From the NCBI GenBank assembly GCA_017462915.1, contig JAFTQG010000046.1:15856-79855 (forward strand): a stretch of 64,000 nt of DNA, in the 5' to 3' direction. Numbering within the stretch: position 1 is the stretch's first letter; the number at the start of each line of letters is the position of its first letter. The DNA comes from Prevotella sp. (GTDB lineage: Bacteria > Bacteroidota > Bacteroidia > Bacteroidales > Bacteroidaceae). The translations under genes were made by a program, and so were the position numbers. Shown here in pieces: positions 43,654 through 64,000 of the stretch. The notes below the pieces were generated by a model. The model saw only the letters and a program-made list of their open reading frames with translations. It did no database searches and was not told the DNA's origin.

Positions 43654-44646
43654 TTAGCCTCTTCCTCCTGTTACGAACAAAAAGGATTTCGGATGTTTTC
43701 TATTCCAATAATCACCTATTACATACAATATCATTATTGTGACTATTGGCAATAGGAAAAAAGCGAGCAATGCAACAATCTCTTCTGAAGGGAATACTTT
43801 CCCCAATATAACTTTCATGGTTTTCAAAATGTAAGCGTGCATCACATATATGAAAAATGCCAAAGGTGAAATCTTCAGCAGCCATTCACGCCATCTGTTG
43901 GATATATTGTCGAGCCATTGCCACAAAATAATAATTCCTAATAGTGTATTATAACGATGGATGCTCCACCAATGGGGATACATAAAGCATGACACCAGCC
44001 AAACTGCAGTCAATGTCGATAAACTCCACACAGGCATCTTAACTTTCAAGATTTCCGGATAACGCTGCAGCACACCTCCTAAAAAGAAGAACAACATTCC
44101 TTCTGAGGACAACCACGCACAATCTACAGGAATCCATTGAGTAAACAATCCGATGAACACAACCAGATACAGCCACTTATTATTAACGGCAAATATCCAT
44201 CCGTAAAGCGGAACCAGCAGCATAAAGGTCATGATGTCACGCACATACCACAGTACGCCATTCCAGTCACTATGCAACAGCTGAAGTCCGTATCTCCACA
44301 TTTCATCCTCAACCACCAACCGCCGTGTTAACAGAAGAACGATTAATCCGAAAATATTCCAAAACAAGAATGGCACAAACAGCGTACGCATCTTCTTTCC
44401 TGTCATCCGGAAATATTCACCCCGTCCATAATATGTATATCTGAAGAAAAAGAATCCAGACACCATGAAAAAAAACGGGACGGCAACCTCTGTTTGCTTG
44501 GAAATGCCTTGTTCCATGAAAGTGGCCACTCCATTGCTGTTTGCCAATCCAAAAGCCTGAAGATTAAAGGAATGACGCAAGACAACAAGCACAGTGCAAA
44601 GGAGTCCTCCGATTTTTATCTTATCACTTAACGACTGCTCTATCAT
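43654..44646 (-). CDS. acyltransferase family 3 membrane protein (probable)
   Basis: 330 aa with about 10 TM segments. The N-terminal ..LLCTVLVVLRHS.. and FFFMVSGFFFF segments resemble acyltransferase_3. Confidence 0.65.
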   Translation of the reverse strand: MIEQSLSDKIKIGGLLCTVLVVLRHSFNLQAFGLANSNGVATFMEQGISKQTEVAVPFFFMVSGFFFFRYTYYGRGEYFRMTGKKMRTLFVPFLFWNIFGLIVLLLTRRLVVEDEMWRYGLQLLHSDWNGVLWYVRDIMTFMLLVPLYGWIFAVNNKWLYLVVFIGLFTQWIPVDCAWLSSEGMLFFFLGGVLQRYPEILKVKMPVWSLSTLTAVWLVSCFMYPHWWSIHRYNTLLGIIILWQWLDNISNRWREWLLKISPLAFFIYVMHAYILKTMKVILGKVFPSEEIVALLAFFLLPIVTIMILYVIGDYWNRKHPKSFLFVTGGRG

Positions 44647-45849: not shown

Positions 45850-46848
45850 TTATATTAATACTTTCCTGTTTTTACCTCTTAATTTCAAATATTTGAACAA
45901 AATGTTATAGACTCTCGTGTAAGCCCAAAACAACAATGGATATTGTACAAATTCAAGGAACTTCTTGTCTGTCATCTGCGTGACAATCTCCAAGTTTTCA
46001 TTATCACTCAGGAATTCCCTCATCTTGCGGTAAACTTGCCAATCAAAAGGCAGTTCCGGAAAGAAGAAACATCTGTCCAATTCCGCTATCCTGTCACATT
46101 CAATCAAGTGCTGCATCTTTGGAGACAAAGATTTTGTTGTAGATTGAAATGCTTCTCCGATTTTCTGTACATAGCTGTAATCTGTTATACAGCTTTGCAT
46201 GATCGAACTGTCATTAACCATATATGCTTGAGTCACCTCGTCTATATAACAAACTTTTTGCACATTTGGCGCAATGCTTATTTGTGTAACCCAGTCTTCC
46301 TGACGCGACACAAACAGAAAGTTTCTGAATATATCTTCAGAAAATAGAGAGCGTTTATATATTGCGCCCCACAGATATGGAGCAACTTCTCTCATTATAT
46401 ACGCTCTTATATACTCCTCTCCTTCCAGTACACCGCTATAATATTTTGTTTCTTCTATACCATAAATGAAATCATCCTGAGAAACTTTGTTGTCACGTCC
46501 CCTCACAATGTCATATCCTTCAATGATTTTGTTATACAATGCATATATGGCATGAGGATATAAATAGTCATCCGAATCCAAGAATATCAAGTACTCTGCT
46601 CTTGCTTCCTTGAATCCTGCCAGCCTTGCAGAAACAAGTCCACCATTCTCTTTGTGCACGACTTTTATGCGCTCGTCTTTAGCTGCGTTCTGGTCGCATA
46701 TCTCAGGACACCTGTCAGGACTTCCGTCATCTACCAATATCAATTCGTAATCGGTAAAGTCCTGACTCAACACAGAGTCTATACACCGTTGGAGATACGG
46801 CTCCACTTTATATACAGGTACTAATACTGAAACTTTGGGAGTATTCAT
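45850..46848 (-). CDS. glycosyltransferase family 2
   Basis: VSVLVPVYKVEPYLQRCIDSVLSQDFTDYELILVDDGSPD and LDSDD. Confidence 0.85.
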   Translation of the reverse strand: MNTPKVSVLVPVYKVEPYLQRCIDSVLSQDFTDYELILVDDGSPDRCPEICDQNAAKDERIKVVHKENGGLVSARLAGFKEARAEYLIFLDSDDYLYPHAIYALYNKIIEGYDIVRGRDNKVSQDDFIYGIEETKYYSGVLEGEEYIRAYIMREVAPYLWGAIYKRSLFSEDIFRNFLFVSRQEDWVTQISIAPNVQKVCYIDEVTQAYMVNDSSIMQSCITDYSYVQKIGEAFQSTTKSLSPKMQHLIECDRIAELDRCFFFPELPFDWQVYRKMREFLSDNENLEIVTQMTDKKFLEFVQYPLLFWAYTRVYNILFKYLKLRGKNRKVLI

Positions 46849-46866
46849 GTTGTTTAATTTGTTTTT

Positions 46867-47871
46867 TTACTTAGCTCCGAAAAGATATTTGCCAAGCAAT
46901 GGAGAGACACGTAAGACGTTGCTGCTCACAAGACACAGGACTATCACTGACGAAGCTATCAATAGTGTACAAAAGAATTCCGTTGAAGGGTTTATATGGG
47001 TTGAAAACCATTGTCCAAGTTCCTGCAAATTATAAGGGAGGAAGAAATAGTGAAGCAGATATATGTCTAATGTCCTTCTGCCCACATATTGCAAGACCTT
47101 TCCCATCCTTGTCTGCTGGGAAAAAAGATTGGAGTAATGTCTGAAAAAAGAGAACACGACAGTTATACCAGTAAATGCCAATACATACTGTTGCATAGGC
47201 AGAAATGTATCATGTATTTGCAACAGACCTATAATGACAAATACAGACAGCAAACACATCGTGAAAATCTTATTGTCAAACATTCTTTCTACCACACTGA
47301 ATTTCCCTTTTACGATACATCCAAATAGGAAATAAATGAAGTATCTATGGTAGTTCATCTGGATAGCAGTCCTTACATCACTCTCCAGCCAATAATTATA
47401 TGGAACAATAGTGTAGACGCTTGTTAATGCAAGAATCACCAAGGCAAATACAGCACACTCCTGATTAAGCGACAACCGAATTTTCTGAAAGAGAATCCTG
47501 AGTAATGTGACTGCAATGAAGAATATAAAAAGCTCTATAGTGAACCAATATCCACTCTTGTCAAAATCCACTATGTGGCGGTAGAGTCTGTCAACAGTCA
47601 TTCCGCCAAAACAATATATGTAAGCAAGCGAGAAAACCGCTGTTGGAACAAGTTGAATCAAAGCCTTCTTCTTGATAAAGTCAAATCCGTTTGCCATATC
47701 CCATCTCCGTTCATACTTGTAATATATAAAACCGCTGATAAAAAAGAACAATGGCATTCTAAACGTAGAAAAGAATATTCCGTATGAGCTATTATATCTA
47801 AAATCCCAACCTCTATAGGAAAAGACAAAGACATGAAACATTACGACCAACAGCATAGTAAACCCACGCAA
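46867..47871 (-). CDS. acyltransferase family 3; 5' end appears disrupted by a C9 tract (full length would be 46867-47939 with C10)
   Basis: The ORF-track start is a TTG inside the conserved motif (E)YIDALRGFTMLLVVMFHV. The frame stays open upstream through the homopolymer. Confidence 0.75.
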   Translation of the reverse strand: MRGFTMLLVVMFHVFVFSYRGWDFRYNSSYGIFFSTFRMPLFFFISGFIYYKYERRWDMANGFDFIKKKALIQLVPTAVFSLAYIYCFGGMTVDRLYRHIVDFDKSGYWFTIELFIFFIAVTLLRILFQKIRLSLNQECAVFALVILALTSVYTIVPYNYWLESDVRTAIQMNYHRYFIYFLFGCIVKGKFSVVERMFDNKIFTMCLLSVFVIIGLLQIHDTFLPMQQYVLAFTGITVVFSFFRHYSNLFSQQTRMGKVLQYVGRRTLDIYLLHYFFLPYNLQELGQWFSTHINPSTEFFCTLLIASSVIVLCLVSSNVLRVSPLLGKYLFGAK

Positions 47872-47914
47872 TGCGTCTATATACTCTATGCGCGTTCCTT
47901 TACCAGCCGAAATA

Positions 47915-47923
47915 GGGGGGGGG
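47915..47923 (-). repeat. homopolymer C9 (coding-strand sense) in the 5' coding region of the acyltransferase
   Basis: The plus strand reads aata GGGGGGGGG actt. ATG 47939 is 68 nt upstream of the TTG at 47871, which is out of frame by 1. Confidence 0.9.
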
Positions 47924-47954
47924 ACTTTTTGTTTTCCATTACATTTACTTTTAT

Positions 47955-48153
47955 AAGTAAGTCACCAAAATTAATGTATGGTATAAAGTGTTGGTTGTTT
48001 TTGAGATGTTTTCGTCTTGTAACGAAGAAGCATAACGGGCTATGTAACTGAGTGACAAGGCGGAAACAGCCAAAAAGAACAAGGTTTTATACATACAAGA
48101 TGTAAGCACTTGCTTTATCATTGATAGTGTCGTCTAATTGGGGCGACTTACTT
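47955..48153. mobile_element. MITE-like long-hairpin element, copy 2 (199 bp)
   Basis: Paralogue of 2337-2532 in the same orientation. It fills the gap between the gtrB-like stop (48158) and the acyltransferase start. Confidence 0.6.
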
Positions 48154-48157
48154 GTCA

Positions 48158-49090
48158 TCATTGCATTTCGTCAGTCTCCCCTATCATATAAGGAGGTCTG
48201 TTCTTTGTTTCGTTAAAGATTCGTCCTATATACTCGCCCAATATGCCAAGGCAAATAAGCTGTATGCCTCCCAAGAAGAGAATGATTACGACCAAGGTCG
48301 TGAAACCTTGCACTGGGTCACCAAAAATCAATGTCTTGACCAAATAATACAACAGGAAACAGAAAGAGATAAAGGCTATGACAAAGCCGGAGATGCTTGC
48401 AAACCGTAATGGCGTAGTGGTGAACGATGTTATGCCTTCAATGGCAAGGTTGAACAAAGAGAAGAAATTCCAGTTGCTGTTTCCTGCCACACGGTCTCCA
48501 CGATTGAACACTATTTCCTTCTTCCTATATCCTATCCAGCAGAACATACCTTTGGTGTAGCGTTCACATTCACGCAATTCCTTCAGCGCATTGACACACT
48601 TCCTGTCTAACAGACGGAAATCGCCGACATTCTGCAACACTTCAAATCTGGTAGTCGCATCCAATATACGGTAGAACAGCAAAGAGAACTGCTTGCGAAG
48701 CCAACTTTCCCTGCCACGGTCTGCACGTTTGGCGTAGACGTCCTGGTATCCCTGTTCCCAATATTCCAACATCTGCGGAATCAGCGACGGAGGGTCCTGT
48801 AAGTCTGCATCCATAATCACCATGCAATCGCCTGTCACATAATCAAAACCGGCAAGCATGGCATTCTCCTTTCCGAAATTTCGCGACAAGCTGACATATC
48901 TTATGCGTTTATCTTCTTGATGCAATGCCTTTACCATCTCAAGAGTGTGGTCACTGCTACCATCGTCAACAAAAACGACTTCCCACTCATACTCCGAATG
49001 TGAGTCCATCAAGCTGACAAGCTCCGGATATAACAAAGGGAGAGATTTTTCTTCGTTATAAGCGGGGACTAAAATAGAAACTTTCTTCAT
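48158..49090 (-). CDS. gtrB: GT2 polyprenyl-phosphate glycosyltransferase, GtrB-like
   Basis: ATG 49090 gives MKKVSILVPAYNEE..VFVDDGSSD..DADLQDPP. Two C-terminal TM helices and the adjacent GtrA-family gene fit the family. Confidence 0.75.
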   Translation of the reverse strand: MKKVSILVPAYNEEKSLPLLYPELVSLMDSHSEYEWEVVFVDDGSSDHTLEMVKALHQEDKRIRYVSLSRNFGKENAMLAGFDYVTGDCMVIMDADLQDPPSLIPQMLEYWEQGYQDVYAKRADRGRESWLRKQFSLLFYRILDATTRFEVLQNVGDFRLLDRKCVNALKELRECERYTKGMFCWIGYRKKEIVFNRGDRVAGNSNWNFFSLFNLAIEGITSFTTTPLRFASISGFVIAFISFCFLLYYLVKTLIFGDPVQGFTTLVVIILFLGGIQLICLGILGEYIGRIFNETKNRPPYMIGETDEMQ

Positions 49091-49103
49091 GACTTGTTCG
49101 TCT

Positions 49104-49505
49104 TTATATTTTAACAGCAATTTTTACTAAGAAAAAATTTACAATTACCGATATGACCAATGTCGGTATGTAAGCTATATTGTCTGGCAAGTAGCATAGT
49201 TGGACAAATATCCACATCAAACCCATCCTGACAACAAACAGATTGACCAGATGTGCCACTACAACACTTCCCACATTCTTTTTTGAGGGCTTGATTCGGA
49301 ACGTCCAATATACAGTCAGGAAATAGTTTGCAAGAAGGCTGATGCAATATCCCGTCATCAACGCCACCTGATAGCAGGCAACAAATCTTACCGTATAAAA
49401 TATGGCGGCATCTATGCCTGTGCATAAGGCACCTACTATACAGAACCTGACAAACTCCATGAGCTGTGGCTCATGCGTGATTTTATCAATGATTTTTGAA
49501 TACAT
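49104..49505 (-). CDS. gtrA: GtrA family membrane protein
   Basis: 133 aa with 4 TM segments. The N-terminus ..FVRFCIVGALCTGIDAAIFY.. is typical of GtrA-like proteins. Confidence 0.75.
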   Translation of the reverse strand: MYSKIIDKITHEPQLMEFVRFCIVGALCTGIDAAIFYTVRFVACYQVALMTGYCISLLANYFLTVYWTFRIKPSKKNVGSVVVAHLVNLFVVRMGLMWIFVQLCYLPDNIAYIPTLVISVIVNFFLVKIAVKI

Positions 49506-49511
49506 ATATCC

Positions 49512-50468
49512 TTACCCCTTTATCAATTTGAATGTTCTTAGCAGTTGAATGAGGCACCATGTCGCCAGCAGTATTACAACAGGACTCGCAAAAGTATAAA
49601 ACACCTGCCAGGCATCCGGCATCCTTGAAACGAATATTGACAGTAGCTTTATATTGAACAAGTGCAGTATATATATATGCAAAGAATATTTTCTGCCTAT
49701 CCGGCTCATGATTCCTTCCTGCTTGACGTGACATGACAAAGTAAATAGCAAGGCACAAATCGACAGGAAAACTGTGCTTATATATAAATCACCTTCCGCA
49801 CCCCCTAACCATCCGCTTTCTGCATATGAGAGCGACGCGAACAATGCTACACCTCCCAAATATATTTTGGAAGATTGTTGCAGCAACTTCTCTTTGTGTT
49901 GTTTTATGTAGTGGCCTGTCAAGAAAAATGGAATTCCCAGAAACAAGAAATTGCGTGACAAGAAACTATAATATGTATTGTCCAGTACCGACTCGATATA
50001 TTTACCCAATAGAATTCCCATTACCAACAATAATGGAATTGCCCAGTAACTAATTCTCAACAAACTGTATCTTTCAATGAAAATCATGCCTGCCAATACA
50101 TATATATATGCAGCCAAATACCATAAATGATATGCAAACGGATTATTGTTGAATAAAACAAAAGCAACAATAGATTTCAGCAATGGAAAGTTATCTACTT
50201 CTTCTATGTCTAATATGTAATTGACAGTTGCATAAAGCAATGAGCCGGCAACCAATATCCATGATGTTTTGCGAAGATTCTTTTTTACCCCCCCCGAATA
50301 GAAATATCCTGACAACATGAAAAACAAAGGAACAGCACTGCGTGCAATAGGCTCGGTGTAAGAATAGTAAGCGGTGCCAACATGCAACAATATGACAAGA
50401 AAAGCACATACCAGACGGAGAATGTCAATAGAATGATTCCTCATCTTTGTCACAAGCTTTCTTGCCAT
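49512..50468 (-). CDS. acyltransferase family 3 (contains an in-frame G8 tract)
   Basis: MRNHSIDILRLVCAFLVILLHV.. and ..VPLFFMLSGYF.. motifs, about 10 TM segments. Confidence 0.8.
   Translation of the reverse strand: MARKLVTKMRNHSIDILRLVCAFLVILLHVGTAYYSYTEPIARSAVPLFFMLSGYFYSGGVKKNLRKTSWILVAGSLLYATVNYILDIEEVDNFPLLKSIVAFVLFNNNPFAYHLWYLAAYIYVLAGMIFIERYSLLRISYWAIPLLLVMGILLGKYIESVLDNTYYSFLSRNFLFLGIPFFLTGHYIKQHKEKLLQQSSKIYLGGVALFASLSYAESGWLGGAEGDLYISTVFLSICALLFTLSCHVKQEGIMSRIGRKYSLHIYILHLFNIKLLSIFVSRMPDAWQVFYTFASPVVILLATWCLIQLLRTFKLIKG
50288..50295 (-). repeat. homopolymer G8 (coding-strand sense) inside the acyltransferase, followed by A6
   Basis: The coding strand reads tat tcg ggg ggg gta aaa aag (YSGGVKK, codons ~57-63). 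Confidence 0.9.
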
Positions 50469-51964
50469 TTTTTCGATACATTCCTTTTCTGCACAATATC
50501 CGCTTTCGTCACTTCAACCCCGAAAGGAGGCGGTGTCACTTTATGCTTTGAATAGATCTTGCTGGCACCATACTCTGCAATGGGGTGATATCCCATGCCG
50601 GCAACCGTACTTTCATACTGTGCCGTCACCTCTTTGCCATGCAGGAGTATGAAATCAGCCCTACCCTCCATAAGCGATTGCTTTTGTGCCTCTGACATTG
50701 CAGGAGTCATTCCCATCTGTGTTATCCAATAACGGCAGGCAGGAAGTGTATACCCCATGGCAAAACCTGGTTCCTGTCCCATGTTCAATACTGTTGGATG
50801 TTCCACTTGCGAAATCATATATCCGACCTGCTCAAAACGGGTTGTCTTCTCTCCGGCTTTGCAGAAGAATGTTTCGGTATAGTGTATTTTACCCCATACT
50901 ATATACACCAAAGCAACAGCTAGCACACCGATATACACCTGTGGTTTTATCCGGCATTCACGCATTAACAGAAGCACTTGCACTACAGCCACAATAGCAA
51001 ATGGGGCGACTATCGAGATATAATGACCGAAATTGTCGTGCCGGATACTTAAGGCAAGGAAGAATAGGGCGGAGAGGAATGGCAGGGCAGATGCGAACCA
51101 CTCTTTTTTCTTCCAAAGGCACAGCAATGGTAATATGTAGACAATATACAGGAAGCGTTTTGTAGTGAATACATTTTTCCATTCTGCAAGATAAGAGGTG
51201 ATAGTCTCTTTCAAAGGTACTTGAACTGTTTGGAGCGTATTGACAAAATACTCCTGCACGAAATCATTCCAATTGCCCACAGCTATGAAGTATAGCAAGA
51301 ATGGTAAAGCCACTACAACGAATCCTGCAATGATGGAAGATACAGTGCGAACTGTTTCCTTCCTCTTATATGCGTAAAACAAAATGCTTACCACAAGACT
51401 CACAAGCATTACAGCTATGCTCCATTTCATCAGCAAACAAGCTGCAATTCCCACTCCGATTCCAAAATACAATCTGAATGGAAGTTTTGCTCTTTGTTGC
51501 ATCAAACGAAGCAATACATAGATGGCGAATGTCACGAAAAAAGTGCAAAAATGTTCAGCTTTTGTTTCGGTATAGAAATTCCAGTAAAAGAATGGCATTG
51601 CCATTCCCATGGAAGCCAGCAGAGATTCTTTCTCAGGCAAATAAAGACGGGCTATTTTGTAGTCAAGACAGAATGTCAGCCAATAGAATAGACAGCACAT
51701 CCAGAATACACCCACATAAGAATAGTGGTGTATCAGATAGCCAATACCGTAGATAGTCCATAATAAAGGGCCTTTTGAATCTGCGAAGTCTACGTATGGG
51801 ACAAGTCCGTTGAACATGGCTTTTCCACACATAAAGAATACGGACGAGTCATAGTGGTCATTGACGGCGTACAGATAAGAATCTATGTTTACGAACAATT
51901 GTACTGCAATGACGTAAACCGCCAGTATAATGGGGACTCTGTATCGGAACCTTTTCTGTTTCAT
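50450..51964 (-). CDS. polytopic GT-C fold glycosyltransferase (ArnT/PMT-like)
   Basis: ATG 51964 gives MKQKRF... There are about 12 TM segments, an N-terminal loop with DSSVFF..GK..G..PYVDFADSKGPL, and a C-terminal soluble domain. Confidence 0.65.
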   Translation of the reverse strand: MKQKRFRYRVPIILAVYVIAVQLFVNIDSYLYAVNDHYDSSVFFMCGKAMFNGLVPYVDFADSKGPLLWTIYGIGYLIHHYSYVGVFWMCCLFYWLTFCLDYKIARLYLPEKESLLASMGMAMPFFYWNFYTETKAEHFCTFFVTFAIYVLLRLMQQRAKLPFRLYFGIGVGIAACLLMKWSIAVMLVSLVVSILFYAYKRKETVRTVSSIIAGFVVVALPFLLYFIAVGNWNDFVQEYFVNTLQTVQVPLKETITSYLAEWKNVFTTKRFLYIVYILPLLCLWKKKEWFASALPFLSALFFLALSIRHDNFGHYISIVAPFAIVAVVQVLLLMRECRIKPQVYIGVLAVALVYIVWGKIHYTETFFCKAGEKTTRFEQVGYMISQVEHPTVLNMGQEPGFAMGYTLPACRYWITQMGMTPAMSEAQKQSLMEGRADFILLHGKEVTAQYESTVAGMGYHPIAEYGASKIYSKHKVTPPPFGVEVTKADIVQKRNVSKKWQESL

Positions 51965-51974
51965 TTCCTTTGTC

Positions 51975-53057
51975 TTATAAATTCTCAATCAATTCCATCC
52001 ATTGTGGCAGAATTGTATTCATGCTAAAGCGATGGGCGGAAGTGTAAGCGTTGCGTCCCATCTGTACACGAAGTTCGTCATCTTTCATTAGTGTGATAAG
52101 CTTTTCAGCAAACTGTGGCACGTTTTCGGGTTCTACAAGCAGACCGTCATACCCGTCGGTGATAATCTCGTTGGGACCGCAAGGACAATCAAACGAGACG
52201 GCAGGCACACTGCATATTGCAGCTTCTGTAAGTACCAGACCAAAGCCCTCGAAGCGTGAAGACAAGGCAAAGATAGCGGCAGAAGACATTTTACCTTGTA
52301 CATCTTTTGTCGGACCCGTGCATACTACATTTCGCAGTCCCATATCACGCGCTTCCTGCTCCAAAGCTTCATAGTCGCCATAGCCACAAACTATTTCCAG
52401 TTGCCAGTCAGGCACTTGCTTTTCCACAGTCTTCCATGCCTCCAACAAGAGGTCAAATCCTTTCTGTGGTGCTATGCGCCCCATGGCTATCACCTTTTTC
52501 TGTTTGCTATGATCTATAGGATGGTCGACTTCAAAAGAAAGCGGATTGTATATCTGTTTCAGGAAATCGGGCTTAAAAGCTGTCTCTCGCAAATAAGTTT
52601 CTCTGTCTGCCTTGGAGATTAGCACAAGTGCATTGGCCTGGTTATGCACCAGTTGCAATGCCTTCTTGCGTAATTCACCTGCACAATAAGAATAGTTGAA
52701 ATGGTCCCACGATATCCATTTTATATCCGTGCCTTTTATAGCAGGAGCTGTCCAGAGGGCATTAAAAGTGTCAATGTCAATAACCACATCTATCTTGTTC
52801 TTTTTAAGATATCGGCGGAAGCGATATGCTCCATACCAGAAATGCCAACGGAACCGACGGTGAAATATGTTATCGAGGATACACCAAAGCTTTATCCTCC
52901 CGTCACAGTGAAAAAAGGGACGGTTAGCCTTGGCATCATAGCTCACCATGTGTACATTGTATCCACGCTCGGCCAGCGCATTGGCCAACCGAAGACCTAC
53001 ACGCTCAGTTCCTCCGCCACAGTCGATGTTGCGGATTGTAAAACAGATGTTCTTCAT
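51975..53057 (-). CDS. glycosyltransferase family 4 (GT-B)
   Basis: ..AAIFALSSRFEGFGLVLTEAAICSVPAVSFDCPCGPNEIITDGYDGLLV. Confidence 0.85.
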   Translation of the reverse strand: MKNICFTIRNIDCGGGTERVGLRLANALAERGYNVHMVSYDAKANRPFFHCDGRIKLWCILDNIFHRRFRWHFWYGAYRFRRYLKKNKIDVVIDIDTFNALWTAPAIKGTDIKWISWDHFNYSYCAGELRKKALQLVHNQANALVLISKADRETYLRETAFKPDFLKQIYNPLSFEVDHPIDHSKQKKVIAMGRIAPQKGFDLLLEAWKTVEKQVPDWQLEIVCGYGDYEALEQEARDMGLRNVVCTGPTKDVQGKMSSAAIFALSSRFEGFGLVLTEAAICSVPAVSFDCPCGPNEIITDGYDGLLVEPENVPQFAEKLITLMKDDELRVQMGRNAYTSAHRFSMNTILPQWMELIENL

Positions 53058-53064
53058 TTTTATA

Positions 53065-54069
53065 TTATTTCCCTAATAAAACCCTATATAATGATGTTGA
53101 AATGGAAAGCATTTTTCTGACCATTAATGAGGAATATGCAATCACAAGAGTCATAATAGCCGATAAAATCGCAATTATCCACCATTGACTTACAGGGTCT
53201 AAGTATTCTCCAATCCACGGCATCTTTAATCCGAGAATAAAGAAATAGTGAATCAAATATATGGGTAATGTATGACGTCCTATCAAGGACAAATGTCTAC
53301 CTATAAATGTTTGCTCCGAAAGCGTATTTTGATATGCAAAACAATATCTGTACAACAAGAAAATCCCCAATAAACCAATCAGTATAGCTTTATAAAAGCC
53401 TCCTCCTGAATGTATCTGTAGTCCAATAAAAACCACCATAGCTGCTCCCATAATCCATTCATTATTTATCAAGCGATGCCACTTGCTCCTGAACATGCAA
53501 CATACAATACCTAATACATAATATGGGAAATGTTCTGCCAAAAGTCGCAGTCCCATCCATCGACAATAGAAGGCTTCATTATGATTCCAATCCCAGAGTT
53601 TAAGTATATGCAGTAATATGGCTATGATTACAAGCGGCAACAATATAATTGTTCCTTTTGAATTGGTCTCTTGCTTTCTGCACTTGGCGTACACTATTGA
53701 CACTAAACAGTGAATGACATTCATGAGAAAAAGGACAAAAGTAAACCAATAACCCCATTTATATTCACCGCCAACACATTCTATCAGTTTAACGTAGTTC
53801 CCATAATATGCACCCACATATAGCAGAAACATTGTTATCGTAGGTAGCATCAAGCATAAAACCCTCTTCTTCAATTGCTTATAAGACAACAGGGGGGGGG
53901 TAAACAATCCGCTGATAAAAAAGAAATTAGAAAGCATAGGGATACTGACAGCCGATGCAATGATTTCCTTTTCCTGAATTCCAAAGCAGAATACTTCTAC
54001 ATGACAGAAAATAACCATAAGCATGGCGATGCCACGCATGCAATCTACATATACTAATCGTTGTTTCAT
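53065..54069 (-). CDS. acyltransferase family 3 (contains an in-frame C9 tract)
   Basis: MKQRLVYVDCMRGIAMLMVIFCHV.. and ..FFFISGLF.. motifs. Confidence 0.8.
   Translation of the reverse strand: MKQRLVYVDCMRGIAMLMVIFCHVEVFCFGIQEKEIIASAVSIPMLSNFFFISGLFTPPLLSYKQLKKRVLCLMLPTITMFLLYVGAYYGNYVKLIECVGGEYKWGYWFTFVLFLMNVIHCLVSIVYAKCRKQETNSKGTIILLPLVIIAILLHILKLWDWNHNEAFYCRWMGLRLLAEHFPYYVLGIVCCMFRSKWHRLINNEWIMGAAMVVFIGLQIHSGGGFYKAILIGLLGIFLLYRYCFAYQNTLSEQTFIGRHLSLIGRHTLPIYLIHYFFILGLKMPWIGEYLDPVSQWWIIAILSAIMTLVIAYSSLMVRKMLSISTSLYRVLLGK
53892..53900 (-). repeat. homopolymer C9 (coding-strand sense) inside the acyltransferase
   Basis: The coding strand reads ttt acc ccc ccc ctg (FTPPL, codons ~56-60). Confidence 0.9.
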
Positions 54070-57059: not shown

Positions 57060-57911
57060 TTATTTTTCAATATTATTCTTCGATTTTCTTATTAACTCCC
57101 ATCCTTGCTTAAAGTCTTGAGTCATTCGATTAAGATGTCTTAATGTGGCTTCAATATCTGACTCTTTTGGGGACGGAAGAATTTCCTCATTATGTTCTAT
57201 ACCAATAAAATCTTCCATGACATCTTTTTTCGTCACAATATTAATATGTGACACTTCTGGACTTGAAGATAGTATTTTTCTTACATCTTTTATGTTTGAC
57301 TCACTGTTTACTATCAGGTATTTTATGTCGGAATATTCAAACGAGACACCAAAATCCAAACGGGAATGTCCAATTTGCTTTTTATAATCAGCATAACCGT
57401 CTTCGGTTAGATACGGCATCACTTCATGTTTGTCTGTCTCAGTTATATAAGGAACCAATCGGTATTCCCGCTCATCATAAAACCGATAGTTCTTAAACTT
57501 CCGATTCTTAGTGACAAGAGGTGCTTGAACAAATTTGACGTTAGACAATAGATACATTGCCATTCCCATATAACCTTTTTCTTCGTGCTCTATTGTTTCT
57601 ATAAGCATCTTGAACAATTGATTATAAACACGTGAGCCATTATTGCAATACCAAACAGGCGAAAAACCATTTCTTAAACCCCATTCACGCGAAAATCCAA
57701 TAGCGTAATCGCCATACGTCCATTTTGTTGTAGCAATTTCCGAGAACGGTAAGTCGCACATACTAATCATTGGGAATGCTATACCTCCCATCTTATTTAT
57801 TGGAAATATCTTCTCCAGACTATATGAATAGGAGATATTGCGACTTTTAAGAATCGAAAAAAAGGCATCCCTCTTTGTCATGTGCCACAGTGTGTTAGAA
57901 CTTAATCCCAT
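57060..57911 (-). CDS. AbiGi-like (abortive-infection family PF10899-like) protein
   Basis: The N-terminus LWHMTK..F..ILK, FPMISMCDLPFSEI and YGDYAIGFSREWGLRNGFSPVWY match my recollection of the AbiGi signature (LFHFT.., PMVCFCDIPLS, YG.YGIGL.K.W). There was no search. Confidence 0.55.
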   Translation of the reverse strand: MGLSSNTLWHMTKRDAFFSILKSRNISYSYSLEKIFPINKMGGIAFPMISMCDLPFSEIATTKWTYGDYAIGFSREWGLRNGFSPVWYCNNGSRVYNQLFKMLIETIEHEEKGYMGMAMYLLSNVKFVQAPLVTKNRKFKNYRFYDEREYRLVPYITETDKHEVMPYLTEDGYADYKKQIGHSRLDFGVSFEYSDIKYLIVNSESNIKDVRKILSSSPEVSHINIVTKKDVMEDFIGIEHNEEILPSPKESDIEATLRHLNRMTQDFKQGWELIRKSKNNIEK

Positions 57912-61035: not shown

Positions 61036-62574
61036 TTATCTTTTTATTTTATTTTTTAGCATCACAATTCTTTCTCTTAAAAATTCACGTTCTCCGGCAT
61101 TGAAGCCCCATTGATAACAACAAAATGCTGTCCAAAGTACGGCTATAGGCGATACTACAAAGAAATGTAGAATGCCTGAGGGTATCCACCAGGCAACTAT
61201 ACAGGGTAAGGTGAACGCAAGTACGGAAACCCACAGACAAGGGAGAATTCCTTCACGGAGGAAACGGCGTACTGGGAATCGTATCAAGCGACGCAGGGTA
61301 TAGAAACGTACTATGTTCAGTAGGAAATAGACCACAATAAAGATGACATATGGACTCCATACCGGTGCGCCCAGTTTGAAAGCAATCCAAGCAAGGGGGA
61401 ACACACTGCATCCCCACGCAGTGACCTCTATCTGATATCTGCGGATATTACCTTGTGCTTGTATTACCTTCAATATGGTTGAACCTGACTGCACAGCCAG
61501 CGACTCAAACATCGTAAGGCGCAGGAAAACTCCTGCCAATGGTGGCACATCGACAAGCCATAATTGCAATAATGTGTCGGCTTCCAAGCAGACGGGAACA
61601 ATAAAAATGTACATTAACAACCACGTGAATTTAGTGCCTCGAATGGCAAGCTGTACCATATAGTCAATGTTGCCACTGGCAAACGATTTGGTGATTTGTG
61701 GGCTGAAAGCGGTAGTGAAATCGTTTACAAACTTCTGTATTGCACTATTGACTGTATTGGCAACTCCACGGGAAGCGTTGAATACCACGCCGTAGAATAC
61801 ATTAACCAACATATTGACACCCTGTGTGTTGAAAGCCCAAGCACTGCTGCCAAACAGATTCCAACCAGCATAGCTGCTCATTTCCTTTAGCAGTTTGAGG
61901 TCGAATACACGTCGGAATCTCGCTTCCTTGAAATGTTTGAAACAGTAGAAGCAGTAGAACAATGTCATTAGTGTGCTGGCTATCGCAAGCAAGATAGAGA
62001 ACAGTATTAAGCGGTCACCGCCATAGGCTTGTATGGAGAAGCAGAGTATCAATTTGGTTACAACGTCTGCAATACCCATATATGCATAAACTCCCATACG
62101 TTCGTAGGCAATGATGACTGCTGTAAAAGGAACGCCTATAAGACCTACAGCCATAGTGAACACGGAGCATTGCAACACCCAGTTTGCAGCATCCATACGA
62201 CCATCGGGTATGGACGCCTGTGTGTTCAGAAACCATACACCAACAACTTCCAATATCACTATGGCAATGGCTGCCATAATAATCTGTACATTGACCGAGG
62301 TACTGAACACTGTTTTCTGTTTCTCAGTATCACCTTCGCCAATAGCGTAGGTTATGTAGCGACTAATGGCGGCAGCCATAGTACTTGTAATGATACTTGA
62401 CATACCGACAATACCTCCCACTACATTATTGATACCGTAATTATCAACACCTAATGCCTGAAGCATGACACGACCTGTATACAGGCTTACGCACATCGTA
62501 ATGAATGTACGCATATAGAGAATCAAGGTGTTTTTTGCTATTCTTTTGTTATTTTCTGAAGTTTGAGTTGGCAT
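61036..62574 (-). CDS. wzx: polysaccharide flippase (Wzx, MOP superfamily)
   Basis: 512 aa with about 12-14 TM segments. The N-terminus KNTLILYMRTFITMCVSLYTGRVMLQALGVDNYG is typical of Wzx-like proteins. It is the first gene of the locus. Confidence 0.75.
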   Translation of the reverse strand: MPTQTSENNKRIAKNTLILYMRTFITMCVSLYTGRVMLQALGVDNYGINNVVGGIVGMSSIITSTMAAAISRYITYAIGEGDTEKQKTVFSTSVNVQIIMAAIAIVILEVVGVWFLNTQASIPDGRMDAANWVLQCSVFTMAVGLIGVPFTAVIIAYERMGVYAYMGIADVVTKLILCFSIQAYGGDRLILFSILLAIASTLMTLFYCFYCFKHFKEARFRRVFDLKLLKEMSSYAGWNLFGSSAWAFNTQGVNMLVNVFYGVVFNASRGVANTVNSAIQKFVNDFTTAFSPQITKSFASGNIDYMVQLAIRGTKFTWLLMYIFIVPVCLEADTLLQLWLVDVPPLAGVFLRLTMFESLAVQSGSTILKVIQAQGNIRRYQIEVTAWGCSVFPLAWIAFKLGAPVWSPYVIFIVVYFLLNIVRFYTLRRLIRFPVRRFLREGILPCLWVSVLAFTLPCIVAWWIPSGILHFFVVSPIAVLWTAFCCYQWGFNAGEREFLRERIVMLKNKIKR

Positions 62575-62618
62575 ATTTTTTATTTCAAGCAGGAGAATAT
62601 ATAAAAAATCAAGAGGAG

Positions 62619-62626
62619 CAAATATA
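62619..62626 (-). promoter_or_regulatory. candidate -7 box (TATATTTG on minus) for the polysaccharide operon
   Basis: The plus strand reads caaatata, 45 nt upstream of the wzx ATG at 62574. Confidence 0.4.
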
Positions 62627-62705
62627 TTACATGAAGTAAGTTCTTATCATTAGGACCATATCATTATTATTTGGCTTATTTTGTACTTTTTTGATTTTCT
62701 ATTTA

Positions 62706-63562
62706 TTATTCACCAATACCTTTAAACAGGTAAGAATAGTTTGAAATGTCAGGTATGTTGCAAACTGGTATATATAGGTTTGATATCGGTTCACCGATGC
62801 AAATATTATTATATTTATCAATCCCAAGTTTTAACTCAGCATCACCCAATTCTGCTTTGATAGCGTAATATGATTTAACAAGCATATTATAGATGTTCAC
62901 CAGGGCAAGAGTGGATCCAGCACTAGTGCCAGCAGCTGTAATACCATATCCTCCTATTGTTGATGTCCCGTCTGACCTTTTTACTATAACATTAATTCCA
63001 GCTTTCCTAAGCTTTCCTATCTCAGGTGAACTGAAATCTACCTCTGGCCTCCCACTTACATCCCAATCTGATGTTAATTCTGGCCAGTTAGCATGAGCAA
63101 TATTTAGTAGTTCTTTATCGCTCCAATGATTATGAGCATCTATTTTAAGAGCAAGGATATTTCATCTTTTACCATAGCATATAAGATATCTCCTGTACGC
63201 TCAATATAGCCAGAACTCTGAATGGTTACACCCAAATGGAAGTGATGAATTTGCCACGATGATAACATCAAGTCTGTATAACCCTCACGTTTCATTGTCT
63301 TAGACTGGTGCGGATTGATATCTTCACCACTTTCCACCTTTGATCTGAACATTTCCCATCCTTCTTGCAATTCTGGAGGGCAGGTGAAATCTTTTGCAAT
63401 CAGTATTTTTCTTGGTTTGGGAGGAATAATGCGCTTTACAAGTGTTATATATTGGATGATAATATCATCTGGTTTGTCGCTCTTTATTTGTATACCGGCC
63501 GCAGTCATACGTTGTTCTAGTATACCTGCAAAATCTTTTTGAAACGGTATAGTCTTTTTCAT
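62706..63562 (-). pseudogene. unknown ~286-aa protein interrupted by a 1-nt frameshift at an A3 run (63160-63162)
   Basis: ORF 63140-63562 ends ..YAMVKDEISLLLK*. The next frame is open from 63161 (NILALKIDAHNHWSDKELL...) down to 62706. One extra A would give ..KDENILALKIDAHNHW... Confidence 0.5.
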
Positions 63563-63621
63563 GAATGTATTTTTTATCGTTTATATTGCTTAGTGAAATA
63601 TTAGCTCAAATCTGATATCCT

Positions 63622-64000
63622 TCAACCATTATGAGTCATTGATGATAGAAATCTTTCCATATTAACAAGCATTGCTTGTCTGGTAGAAGAAATTCCTTCT
63701 GGTCTGAAATGCATAAGGTCATTGCGAATTTTCCTTATCTCATCCAATGCATTGGTGAAGGCTGTCCTGTCTACATTCAGGCTCAACTTGTTCCACATAT
63801 CTCGATTCTCCAATATTCTGACATAATAGCCAAAATTTAGGTCATCAATGGATGTGATATTTGGACGGTCTTCTTCTTTAATGAAGGGCAGTATATCCTC
63901 AAGAGTGAATATGTTTATCAACTGACGAATGTAAGTCTCAATCTCCTTTATCAACAGATATGGCTCAGTCAGTTTTAGGTATTGCTGAGAGATGTCCGTG
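63622..64000 (-). CDS. C-terminal part of a HEPN-motif protein (5' end outside the window)
   Basis: The frame is open to the window edge. The Rx4H motif sits in ..DEIRKIRNDLMHFRPEG.., resembling Swt1-like HEPN domains. Confidence 0.5.
   Translation of the reverse strand, partial: TDISQQYLKLTEPYLLIKEIETYIRQLINIFTLEDILPFIKEEDRPNITSIDDLNFGYYVRILENRDMWNKLSLNVDRTAFTNALDEIRKIRNDLMHFRPEGISSTRQAMLVNMERFLSSMTHNG

Follow-up and report, generated by a model that had tools for sequence, protein, structure and literature searches.

A hypermutable cytosine tract as a probable ON/OFF switch of a capsule O-acyltransferase gene in Prevotella

The stretch of Prevotella sp. DNA analysed here (the window; 64,000 nucleotides, whose numbering is used for all coordinates) carries a low-GC polysaccharide biosynthesis locus on its minus strand, extending from ~38.9 to 62.6 kb (GC ~0.40, compared with 0.52 upstream). 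The locus encodes glycosyltransferases (GTs) of the GT2, GT4, GT8 and GT-D types, a pyruvyl transferase, a Wzy polymerase, a WecG-type transferase at its 3' end, and four membrane O-acyltransferases of the acyltransferase-3 (AT3) family, termed AT3#1 through AT3#4 (Table 1). Our main subject is tract 1, a run of nine C residues near the start of the AT3#1 gene. C runs of minus-strand genes such as this one appear as G runs on the plus strand. Four database entries labelled 'acyltransferase [Prevotella sp.]' by NCBI and drawn from metagenome-assembled genomes (MAGs), namely MBQ9094119, MBQ9094122, MBQ9094125 and MBQ9094128, evidently derive from the contig that contains the window.

Table 1. 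Coordinates of the acyltransferase genes, their tracts and adjoining features in the window
Feature	Coordinates	Strand	Description	Basis
Tract 1, C9 homopolymer	47915..47923	-	Codons 6-9 of AT3#1; G9 on the plus strand	Direct reading
OFF-state frame	47886..47939	-	17-aa peptide MENKKSPPLFRLVKERA; TAG at 47888-47886	Translation
TTG, sole in-frame start remaining with C9	47869..47871	-	Open reading frame (ORF) 46867-47871, 334 aa	ORF listing
AT3#1 membrane O-acyltransferase gene (PF01757)	46867..47939	-	357 aa at C10	Pfam on repaired protein
A7 run overlapping the AT3#1 stop codon	46862..46868	-	Outside the coding sequence	
Palindromic repeat resembling a miniature inverted-repeat transposable element (MITE)	47945..48160	-	216 nt; occupies the space from the GtrB-like gene to AT3#1; ends 6 nt before the ATG	
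Gtr-like side-chain modification module	48158..51988	-	Holds AT3#2; precedes AT3#1	Pfam
PMT_2 gene of the module	50450..51988			
GtrA gene of the module	49104..49505			
GtrB-like GT2 gene of the module	48158..49120			
AT3#2 acyltransferase gene	49512..50468	-	Between PMT_2 and GtrA	PF01757, E 4e-26
Tract 2, G8 on the coding strand	50288..50295	-	Codons S58-V61 of AT3#2; in frame, ON	
AT3#3 acyltransferase gene	53065..54069	-		PF01757, E 7.4e-24
Tract 3, C9 on the coding strand	53892..53900	-	Codons T57-L60 of AT3#3; in frame, ON	
AT3#4 acyltransferase gene	43654..44646	-	No tract; internal negative control	PF01757, E 6.4e-30

On the minus strand, the ATG at 47939-47937 is followed by GAA AAC AAA AAG T, then by nine C residues (47923-47915) and, directly 3' of these, by TATTTCGG. 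An initial annotation made from the sequence had claimed that this C9 run places the acyltransferase out of frame with its ATG, and direct reading and translation confirm that it does. The Acyl_transf_3 frame itself stays open across the run (..NGKQKVPPPISAGKGTRIEYIDALRG..), and no ATG, GTG or TTG occurs in that frame from the upstream TGA to the C run. The only in-frame start left with C9 is, as also claimed, a TTG that cuts into a conserved motif, such that the product initiated at TTG 47871 is without the block R17-D22. Every factual statement of the initial annotation about this site was found to be correct, and its guess of a Bacteroidales origin agrees with the Prevotella label of the proteins. 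The sigma-70 promoter scan described below also reported a 'terminator-like' match at 47919-47937, which lies on the antisense strand and is the tract itself.

Addition of one C joins ATG 47939 to a 357-aa protein, and removal of two C residues joins it to a protein of 356 aa. Among runs of 7, 8, 9, 10 and 12 C, only 7 and 10 place this ATG in the AT3 frame, and translation through C8, C9 or C12 stops after 12 or 17 codons. Tract 1 is a G/C run within a coding sequence, of the length (~7 or more) at which such runs are mutable, and its length shifts the gene between a full-length frame (C7 or C10) and a truncated one (C8, C9 or C12). A sequence such as CCACCTCCG provides one example of a form in which tract 1 would be locked in the ON state.

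The repaired AT3#1 protein matches PF01757 along nearly the whole profile (positions 2-324 of 326) and above the curated threshold (E 3.5e-28; 99 bits against a cut-off of 31). The R/K-X10-H motif of the first transmembrane helix (TMH1) is present as R25-GFTMLLVVMF-H36, and the FFXISG motif of TMH2 is present in the repaired protein as FFFISG (..RMPLFFFISGFIYY..). After TMH2, the RXXR site reads KYERRW, which is a K-X-X-R / RR variant of a motif known to be highly, not absolutely, conserved in the AT3 family (PMC7448272). In a set of 120 homologues, R17, D22, R25, G26 and H36 are invariant in 118-120 sequences, and the conserved core begins at R17 with the pattern R-I-E-Y-I-D-A-[M/L]-R-G. The start codon lies 2-44 residues upstream of R17 in 118 of these homologues, and the sequence of the intervening tail is without conservation. 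Because this tail is variable, AT3#1 can tolerate the tract there, with two, three or four prolines all accepted.

The product of TTG 47871 keeps R25 and H36, and is missing both R17-D22 and the beginning of the first helix. In Salmonella OafA, the TMH1 residues of the R/K-X10-H motif (R14 and H25) are essential (PMC7448272). Judging from the conserved positions that are missing, the TTG product is probably inactive or strongly impaired, and the OFF state probably represents a real loss. Acyl transfer by AT3#1 to the capsule polysaccharide is likewise suggested by its family and by its place in a locus of Wzx, Wzy and GT genes.

Public annotation records the OFF-state gene from several internal starts, as calls of 334, 329, 296 and 276 aa, such that one locus appears as four 'proteins'. 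These N-terminally truncated calls fall in the same 90% identity cluster as the full-length forms described below. The window copy is deposited as MBQ9094122.1, with 334 aa and a start inside the conserved motif; the deposited 334-aa form (P0122) was absent from the contig index. The split and truncated calls of tract-bearing genes are a systematic annotation artefact.

A homologue search with repaired AT3#1 returned a 356-aa protein with 100% identity. The 90% cluster of AT3#1 contains a C7 form that begins MENKKSPPISAGKG... (356 aa; P0001) and a C10 form that begins MENKKSPPPISAGKG... (357 aa), the latter represented by two sequences (P0125 and P0127). The product that the initial annotation had predicted for a tenth C is thus on record, as is its C7 counterpart. 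Searches with the full-length AT3#1 protein among species-representative genomes of GTDB revealed no relative, and variable-gap DNA patterns for tracts 1 and 3 yielded no match in the JGI metagenomes.

Comparative data were gathered by exact-protein look-ups in NCBI, ENA and Logan assemblies. The 25 contigs fetched behind the AT3#1 cluster proteins (designated by L numbers), together with the window, provide 26 copies of tract 1. These copies carry C7 (two), C8 (six), C9 (eleven), C10 (three) and C12 (three), and in the one remaining copy (L014) the T preceding the tract is changed to C, which is equivalent to the C8 frame. Five of the 26 copies are in frame (ON) and 21 are OFF.

Little else varies in this region. 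A 1,190-nt alignment of 21 of the sequences, spanning the gene together with 75 nt 5' of it, is variable only at tract 1 (including the T>C change of L014) and at an A7/A8 run after the stop codon; the five copies added later supply length data for tract 1, and two single amino-acid substitutions (P0126 and P0127) occur among them. In loci at least 99.85% identical to the window, all insertions and deletions are homopolymeric (tract 1, tract 2, the A7 run and one G5>G6 change). Over 21,074 nt, L003 differs from the window by one single-nucleotide polymorphism (SNP) and by C10 in place of C9. In a table of 9.5-kb haplotypes, L003, L011 and L015 are SNP-identical and the window is one SNP away, and this group comprises one C10 and three C9 copies; another haplogroup comprises one C7 and two C8 copies. 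Length is constant inside several study series (C8 in three copies, C10 in two, C8 in two and C9 in two) and differs from series to series, and two series are mixed (C9/C9/C10/C9 and C12/C9). Because the background is nearly free of substitutions and the lengths are consistent within series, we conclude that tract 1 mutates recurrently and that its variation is not random assembly noise. Five lengths in 26 copies represent a polymorphism among close relatives far above background mutation.

The initial annotation had proposed a phase-variable OFF state and a comparison of tract length among related strains. The lengths of 7, 8, 9, 10 and 12 in public assemblies, found in otherwise identical copies and including changes inside SNP-identical haplogroups, correspond to neither a fixed C9 nor a simple assembly error for C10, and they support the proposal. 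The A7 run at the end of the gene also varies, and reads A8 in L009, L010, L016, L018, L019 and L020, which alters the distance to the ATG of the following gene (46848) by 1 nt. The distribution of A7 and A8 does not track the SNP haplogroups, as L016 groups with the A7 sequences L001 and L017.

These comparisons bear on the possibility that the true sequence is C10, that the gene is intact, and that the differences between assemblies are homopolymer miscalls. Short-read platforms do struggle with long G/C runs, and L003, a contig of nearly equal length (85,307 vs 85,305 nt) that is separated from the window by one SNP in 21 kb, carries C10 in place of C9. However, the lengths run from 7 to 12 rather than scattering by one about a single value, and the same lengths repeat inside study series. 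At most five A/T runs of 7-8 nt occur in the locus, and one of these varies. Length variants come from MEGAHIT, SPAdes and Logan assemblies alike, and tracts 2 and 3 behave likewise, with genes that are split as predicted. We therefore consider it very unlikely that miscalls account for the variation as a whole, and an error of one nucleotide may nonetheless affect the C9 of the window.

The same lengths are informative regarding a different proposal, in which slippage of RNA polymerase or -1 ribosomal frameshifting on the C run, aided by stalling at poly-proline, allows enzyme to be made from the C9 allele at a low set level. By sequence logic, one -1 slip on C9 would restore the AT3 frame, and the C run is both a perfect slippery sequence and a source of consecutive prolines. 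Were the run a dedicated recoding signal, one fixed length would be anticipated, whereas in-frame alleles exist in genomes and length varies over all three frames. Recoding is highly improbable as the main mode of expression, and it is compatible, as leakiness, with a genomic switch at tract 1.

The initial annotation had also reported that two more acyltransferases in this locus carry G/C runs of 8-9 nt, and these are indeed present as G8 in AT3#2 and C9 in AT3#3. Both tracts sit just 3' of the FFxxSG motif, in the segment leading toward the basic RXXR-like residues. A G8 form of tract 2 occurs in the window, L003, L011, L012 and L018; L005 and L013 carry G7, and L022 and L023 carry G9. The G7 and G9 forms split or re-frame AT3#2, and the wrong frames meet the AT3 frame at the run (..RIFLFGGVKK.. 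/ ..ISIRGGVKK..); out-of-frame call variants in the AT3#2 cluster include P0132, P0135, P0140 and P0141. For tract 3, the window, L003 and L011 carry C9, and L021 and L023 carry C8, with the gene of the latter two called in two pieces of 65 and 261 aa. An AT3#3 allele that is ~90% identical, from another sample series, has C8T at the same codons and is in frame. The tract-free AT3#4 does not behave in this way, and its cluster is 330 aa throughout except for one call of 245 aa (P0150).

The combinations of states differ between samples, which bears out the suggestion of the initial annotation that these genes could switch independently. All three tracts are ON in L003, and the window and L011 are OFF at tract 1 and ON at tracts 2 and 3. 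Tracts 1 and 2 are both OFF in L005, in which tract 3 is not covered. Sample SRR30592961 (L001 and L022) is ON at tract 1 and OFF at tract 2 and is without the gene for tract 3, and sample SRR14160746 (L014 and L023) is OFF at all three. Three tracts may thus provide up to 8 acylation states, which is to be read as a possibility and not a measurement.

Further genes of capsule loci carry comparable runs. Two additional AT3 genes in L012 are interrupted exactly at G9 and G8, respectively, and L014 has an unbroken version of the latter gene with G7. A G8 run (1289-1296) also divides an FrhB-like gene of L012, and a radical-SAM gene is split at G7 (L024 5004-5010; L028 1-7), with one Logan contig starting exactly there. 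A GtrB-like GT2 gene carries an in-frame G9 (L116 5810-5818). In Segatella sinensis, a G8 run (L038 7314-7321) lies where a GT2 domain meets a domain of the hexapeptide acetyltransferase type, and its length may choose between a fused protein and separate ones. The module of AT3#2 has also suffered damage in L018, in the form of a G5>G6 frameshift inside AT3#2 (L018 2430-2435; window 49806) and a deletion of ~600 nt of the GtrB-like gene (L018 3109-3219; window 49127-48532). Both are ordinary inactivating lesions of the same module.

Long G/C runs are otherwise rare in the window. Runs of 4 nt number 96 and runs of 5 nt number eight; none has 6 or 7 nt, and three have 8-9 nt. Each of these three longest runs falls in a different AT3 gene, out of the four in this polysaccharide locus. 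The G8 pattern gives five overlapping matches against 0.37 expected from dinucleotide-preserving shuffles, and none of 100 shuffles reaches five. Codon or amino-acid composition was considered as a source of the tracts and rejected, given that the AT3 proteins are not rich in proline or glycine. The runs are not produced by codon usage, because CCC (11-14% of proline codons) and GGG (5.5-7.6% of glycine codons) are rare. No repeats of di- to tetranucleotide or longer units were found in the locus.

The closest distinct orthologue of AT3#1 is P0002, which has 57% identity and the same context of GtrA, PMT_2 and GtrB genes. It carries C7 in its N-terminal tail (MIKKNKHIYFTPPDF..), a tail that is otherwise unrelated in sequence to that of AT3#1, and the adjoining GtrB-like gene has a G9 run. 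The rarity of G/C runs, the rare codons, the diverged AT3#3 allele and P0002 together suggest that the tracts are retained rather than accidental.

Generality was evaluated with a panel of 80 other capsule-locus ends (1.24 Mb) from species-representative genomes, located by using the WecG-type gene as an anchor. The panel covers the genera Prevotella, Segatella, Paraprevotella, Phocaeicola and Bacteroides, and the species of the window is not among its members (best match 81% identity). Counts of G/C runs of lengths 5 through 10 are 516, 55, 16, 11, 8 and 2, which represents a tenfold fall followed by a plateau. The 21 runs of at least 8 nt include six in AT3 genes and six in genes for hexapeptide-repeat acetyltransferases, two of the latter from the cultured isolate Segatella sinensis CLA-AA-H174. 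The others lie in three glycosyltransferases, one DegT aminotransferase, the N-terminus of one SusC-like protein and, in four cases, unannotatable sequence. AT3-like DNA makes up 1.15% of the panel and holds seven of the 21 runs (binomial P = 2.6e-9). Two of the 12 runs in acyl/acetyltransferase genes are out of frame.

Some contigs with a WecG capsule gene of Bacteroidales type (70-77% identical to Prevotella WecG) are filed under MAGs of non-Bacteroidales (L052, L057, L060, L062, L066, L068, L070, L072, L075, L084, L088 and L090). The labels of these MAGs are Lachnospiraceae, Eggerthellaceae, Dysosmobacter, Akkermansia, Flexilinea, Oscillibacter, Vescimonas, Subdoligranulum and Roseburia, and the contigs are most likely mis-binned pieces of capsule loci.

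The sequence between the GtrB-like gene and AT3#1 is occupied by a MITE-like repeat, of which a second copy with 87-91% identity lies at 2336-2535 of the window (element size ~205-216 nt). The element has terminal inverted repeats (AAGTAAGTC...GACTTACTT) and folds as a single long hairpin (z -4.35); a scan of the window against Rfam detected two tRNAs only and no family for this repeat. The copy upstream of AT3#1 is 99.5-100% identical in all loci that extend to it, and the Logan contigs all end inside it. A match to TAnnTTTG, which we take to be the Bacteroides promoter consensus, occurs within the repeat at 47973-47966 and offers a weak promoter lead. The repeat may supply a promoter, or it may insulate AT3#1 from upstream transcription. 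A sigma-70 promoter scan, which uses a model not appropriate for Bacteroidota, gave matches at or below shuffle expectation. Adjoining the second copy of the repeat, at 1420-1701, are three tandem units of ~66 nt in which an ORF on one strand repeats CKCNANRVQSNLFEIAEVPLAL.

The block from ~52260 to 46620, which comprises PMT_2, AT3#2, GtrA, the GtrB-like gene, the MITE-like repeat and AT3#1, is near-identical in L012, and the rest of the L012 capsule locus differs. In the AT3#1 region (46830-48015), 21 aligned assemblies show zero SNPs, whereas L014 diverges by 2.2% in the adjacent 3.8 kb. Under uniform divergence, zero SNPs would arise by chance with a probability of ~2e-9. These findings suggest that the Gtr-like module with its two switchable acyltransferases is a recently exchanged cassette. 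A putative abortive-infection gene, AbiGi-like (PF10899, E 1.2e-24), is also located inside the capsule locus at 57060-57911, between genes for a thiamine pyrophosphate (TPP) enzyme and the pyruvyl transferase, and it occupies the same place in L003, L011, L013 and L022.

Plain pseudogenisation must also be weighed, in which an accessory acyltransferase decays by neutral frameshifts at mutable sequence and any switching is without function. The 21 OFF copies among 26 are compatible with no selection for expression, the conserved motif MPLFFFISG is altered by a P>S substitution in P0126, which stems from an OFF allele, and AT3#1 was not found in GTDB species representatives or in JGI metagenomes. 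Decay of this type is difficult to reconcile with the lack of a second disabling lesion in any of the 26 copies, and with the persistence of two different in-frame lengths. Moreover, the tract is kept in diverged alleles and orthologues, and such tracts are strongly over-represented in acyl/acetyltransferase genes across genera despite a background that avoids G/C runs. The cassette also appears to spread between capsule loci, as judged from zero SNPs compared with the 2.2% divergence of adjacent L014 DNA. On balance, we consider simple decay to be unlikely.

The best explanation of the data is that tract 1 constitutes a homopolymeric contingency locus, situated in an N-terminal tail that is dispensable to the capsule or O-antigen O-acyltransferase. 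This explanation draws on the anatomy of the tract and its frame logic, the natural ON and OFF alleles, the recurrent changes of length and the non-random placement of tracts, and it makes a role for tract 1 as a hypermutable ON/OFF switch of the enzyme quite probable. Slipped-strand mispairing in replication would add or remove C residues. Lengths of 7, 10 or 13 C would place ATG 47939 in frame and yield the full AT3 enzyme with 10 transmembrane segments (ON), and any other length, including that of the window, would cause termination after 12 or 17 codons (OFF). The enzyme presumably uses cytoplasmic acyl-CoA as donor and transfers an acyl group, most likely acetyl, to a sugar in the polysaccharide that the surrounding Wzx/Wzy locus produces, such that switching would cause one decoration to be gained or lost. 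With two further tracted AT3 genes in the locus, several acylation patterns could coexist in one population. By analogy with the established behaviour of homopolymers in Haemophilus, Neisseria and Campylobacter (PMC11868660, PMC8437040, PMC6321876), we infer slippage as the mechanism, reversibility within a clone, the sugar acceptor and a benefit such as evasion of phages or antibodies.

Several points weigh against this interpretation. The sequences compared are consensus assemblies, all from short-read metagenome data in which long G/C runs are error-prone, and the C9 of the window may be off by one, given that the near-identical L003 has C10. The fraction of ON copies (5 of 26) is close to the one-third expected without selection for expression, so the tally neither demonstrates adaptive value nor indicates which state is favoured. 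Almost no substitutions are present in AT3#1, and the comparison consequently has no power to test purifying selection on OFF alleles. Finally, OFF alleles may leak via transcriptional or ribosomal slippage or through reinitiation at TTG 47871.

A broader proposal is that Bacteroidales carry widespread, unrecognised G/C homopolymer switches in their capsule O-acyl- and O-acetyltransferase genes, operating beneath invertible promoters to generate combinatorial fine structure, with some of them spread as plug-in cassettes. We advance this proposal tentatively, as a serious possibility. The set may include members of Prevotella, Segatella, Paraprevotella, Phocaeicola and Bacteroides from gut and rumen, and one such plug-in cassette may be the AT3 gene described here, which is free of SNPs and follows a MITE-like element within a Gtr-like module.

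Capsule variation in Bacteroidales is currently ascribed to invertible promoters that switch whole loci. If the broader proposal is true, one strain may show far more surface variants than the count of its capsule loci implies, and would have a simple means of evading phages or antibodies that recognise O-acetyl groups. Such genes would systematically be mis-called as truncated or split in genome annotations and in MAG catalogues, and selection on the surface structures of Prevotella in rumen and gut could be read from tract lengths in metagenomes. This layer of switching may also help to explain phage-host coexistence and antigenic micro-heterogeneity in Bacteroidales commensals.

The mechanism is classical, and its occurrence in Bacteroidales appears to be undescribed. 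A 2025 review of phase variation (PMC11868660) and a 2025 study of phage coexistence (PMC12118408) describe only invertase-driven switches for Bacteroidales, a review of the AT3 family (PMC9558356) contains no word beginning 'Bacteroid', and the main text of the preprint PMC11741434 (v2) contains no simple sequence repeat (SSR), homopolymer or slipped-strand terms. Aside from one remark in PMC3090145, we found no report of repeat-based switching in Prevotella or Bacteroidales in the full-text literature outside subscription journals. The points of interest are the taxon, the multiplicity of tracts and their apparent breadth across Bacteroidales.

That remark concerns Bacteroides fragilis, in which the PSI/9 acetyltransferase is frameshifted by a change of C4 to C5 that the authors speculated to result from slippage (Patrick et al. 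2010, PMC3090145). This case resembles tract 1 in that an acetyltransferase of a Bacteroidales capsule locus is broken by one extra C. However, a run of C4-5 is below the length at which slippage is frequent, and the report concerns one difference between two strains, with no polymorphism series or enrichment analysis.

In Salmonella, O-antigen modification by gtrABC and oafB is subject to epigenetic phase variation through Dam and OxyR (PMC9558356). The side-chain glucosylation and acetylation modules are alike, with GtrA, the GtrB-like GT2 and PMT_2 (GtrC-like) interleaved with AT3 genes here. The Salmonella switch is epigenetic, acts at promoters and often resides in phage-borne modules, whereas the candidate switch in Prevotella is a repeat in a coding sequence.

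Haemophilus influenzae oafA encodes a phase-variable AT3 O-acetyltransferase of lipooligosaccharide (LOS) (PMC9558356). The two systems share a PF01757 enzyme, decoration of a surface glycan and an intragenic simple-sequence repeat that sets the reading frame, and ON/OFF switching is stochastic in H. influenzae. In that proteobacterial pathogen, however, the repeat is a tetranucleotide, the target is an LOS heptose and a single gene is involved, in contrast with the homopolymer, Wzx/Wzy polysaccharide and several AT3 genes of the window.

Campylobacter jejuni has poly-G contingency genes in its capsule and LOS loci (PMC8437040, PMC6321876), and links of poly-G switching to phage escape are reported (PMC8224891). 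The likeness lies in intragenic G/C homopolymers within several glycan-modifying genes of one locus, which switch independently in C. jejuni to give a combinatorial surface. The C. jejuni tracts are ~8-12 nt long, and the enzymes concerned are mainly O-methyl phosphoramidate (MeOPN) transferases, methyltransferases and glycosyltransferases. The two organisms differ in phylum and genome composition, and rates and phenotypes have been measured in C. jejuni, whereas here they are deduced.

Capsule loci of Bacteroides are controlled by invertible promoters (PMC11868660, PMC3090145, PMC12118408). Within 62400-64000 of the window, a search for such a promoter found only one weak inverted repeat (19 nt, 79% complementary) and no recombinase, and the locus start may lie past the window end. 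The hallmarks of an invertible-promoter capsule switch were thus not found in the part of the locus inside the window, and a switch for the whole locus may lie beyond it. Bacteroides and the organism studied here belong to the same order, and within-strain heterogeneity of the capsule is the outcome in both cases. Whereas promoter inversion in Bacteroides acts on a whole locus, a frameshift at tract 1 would act on one modifying gene and fine-tune the polysaccharide that is expressed.

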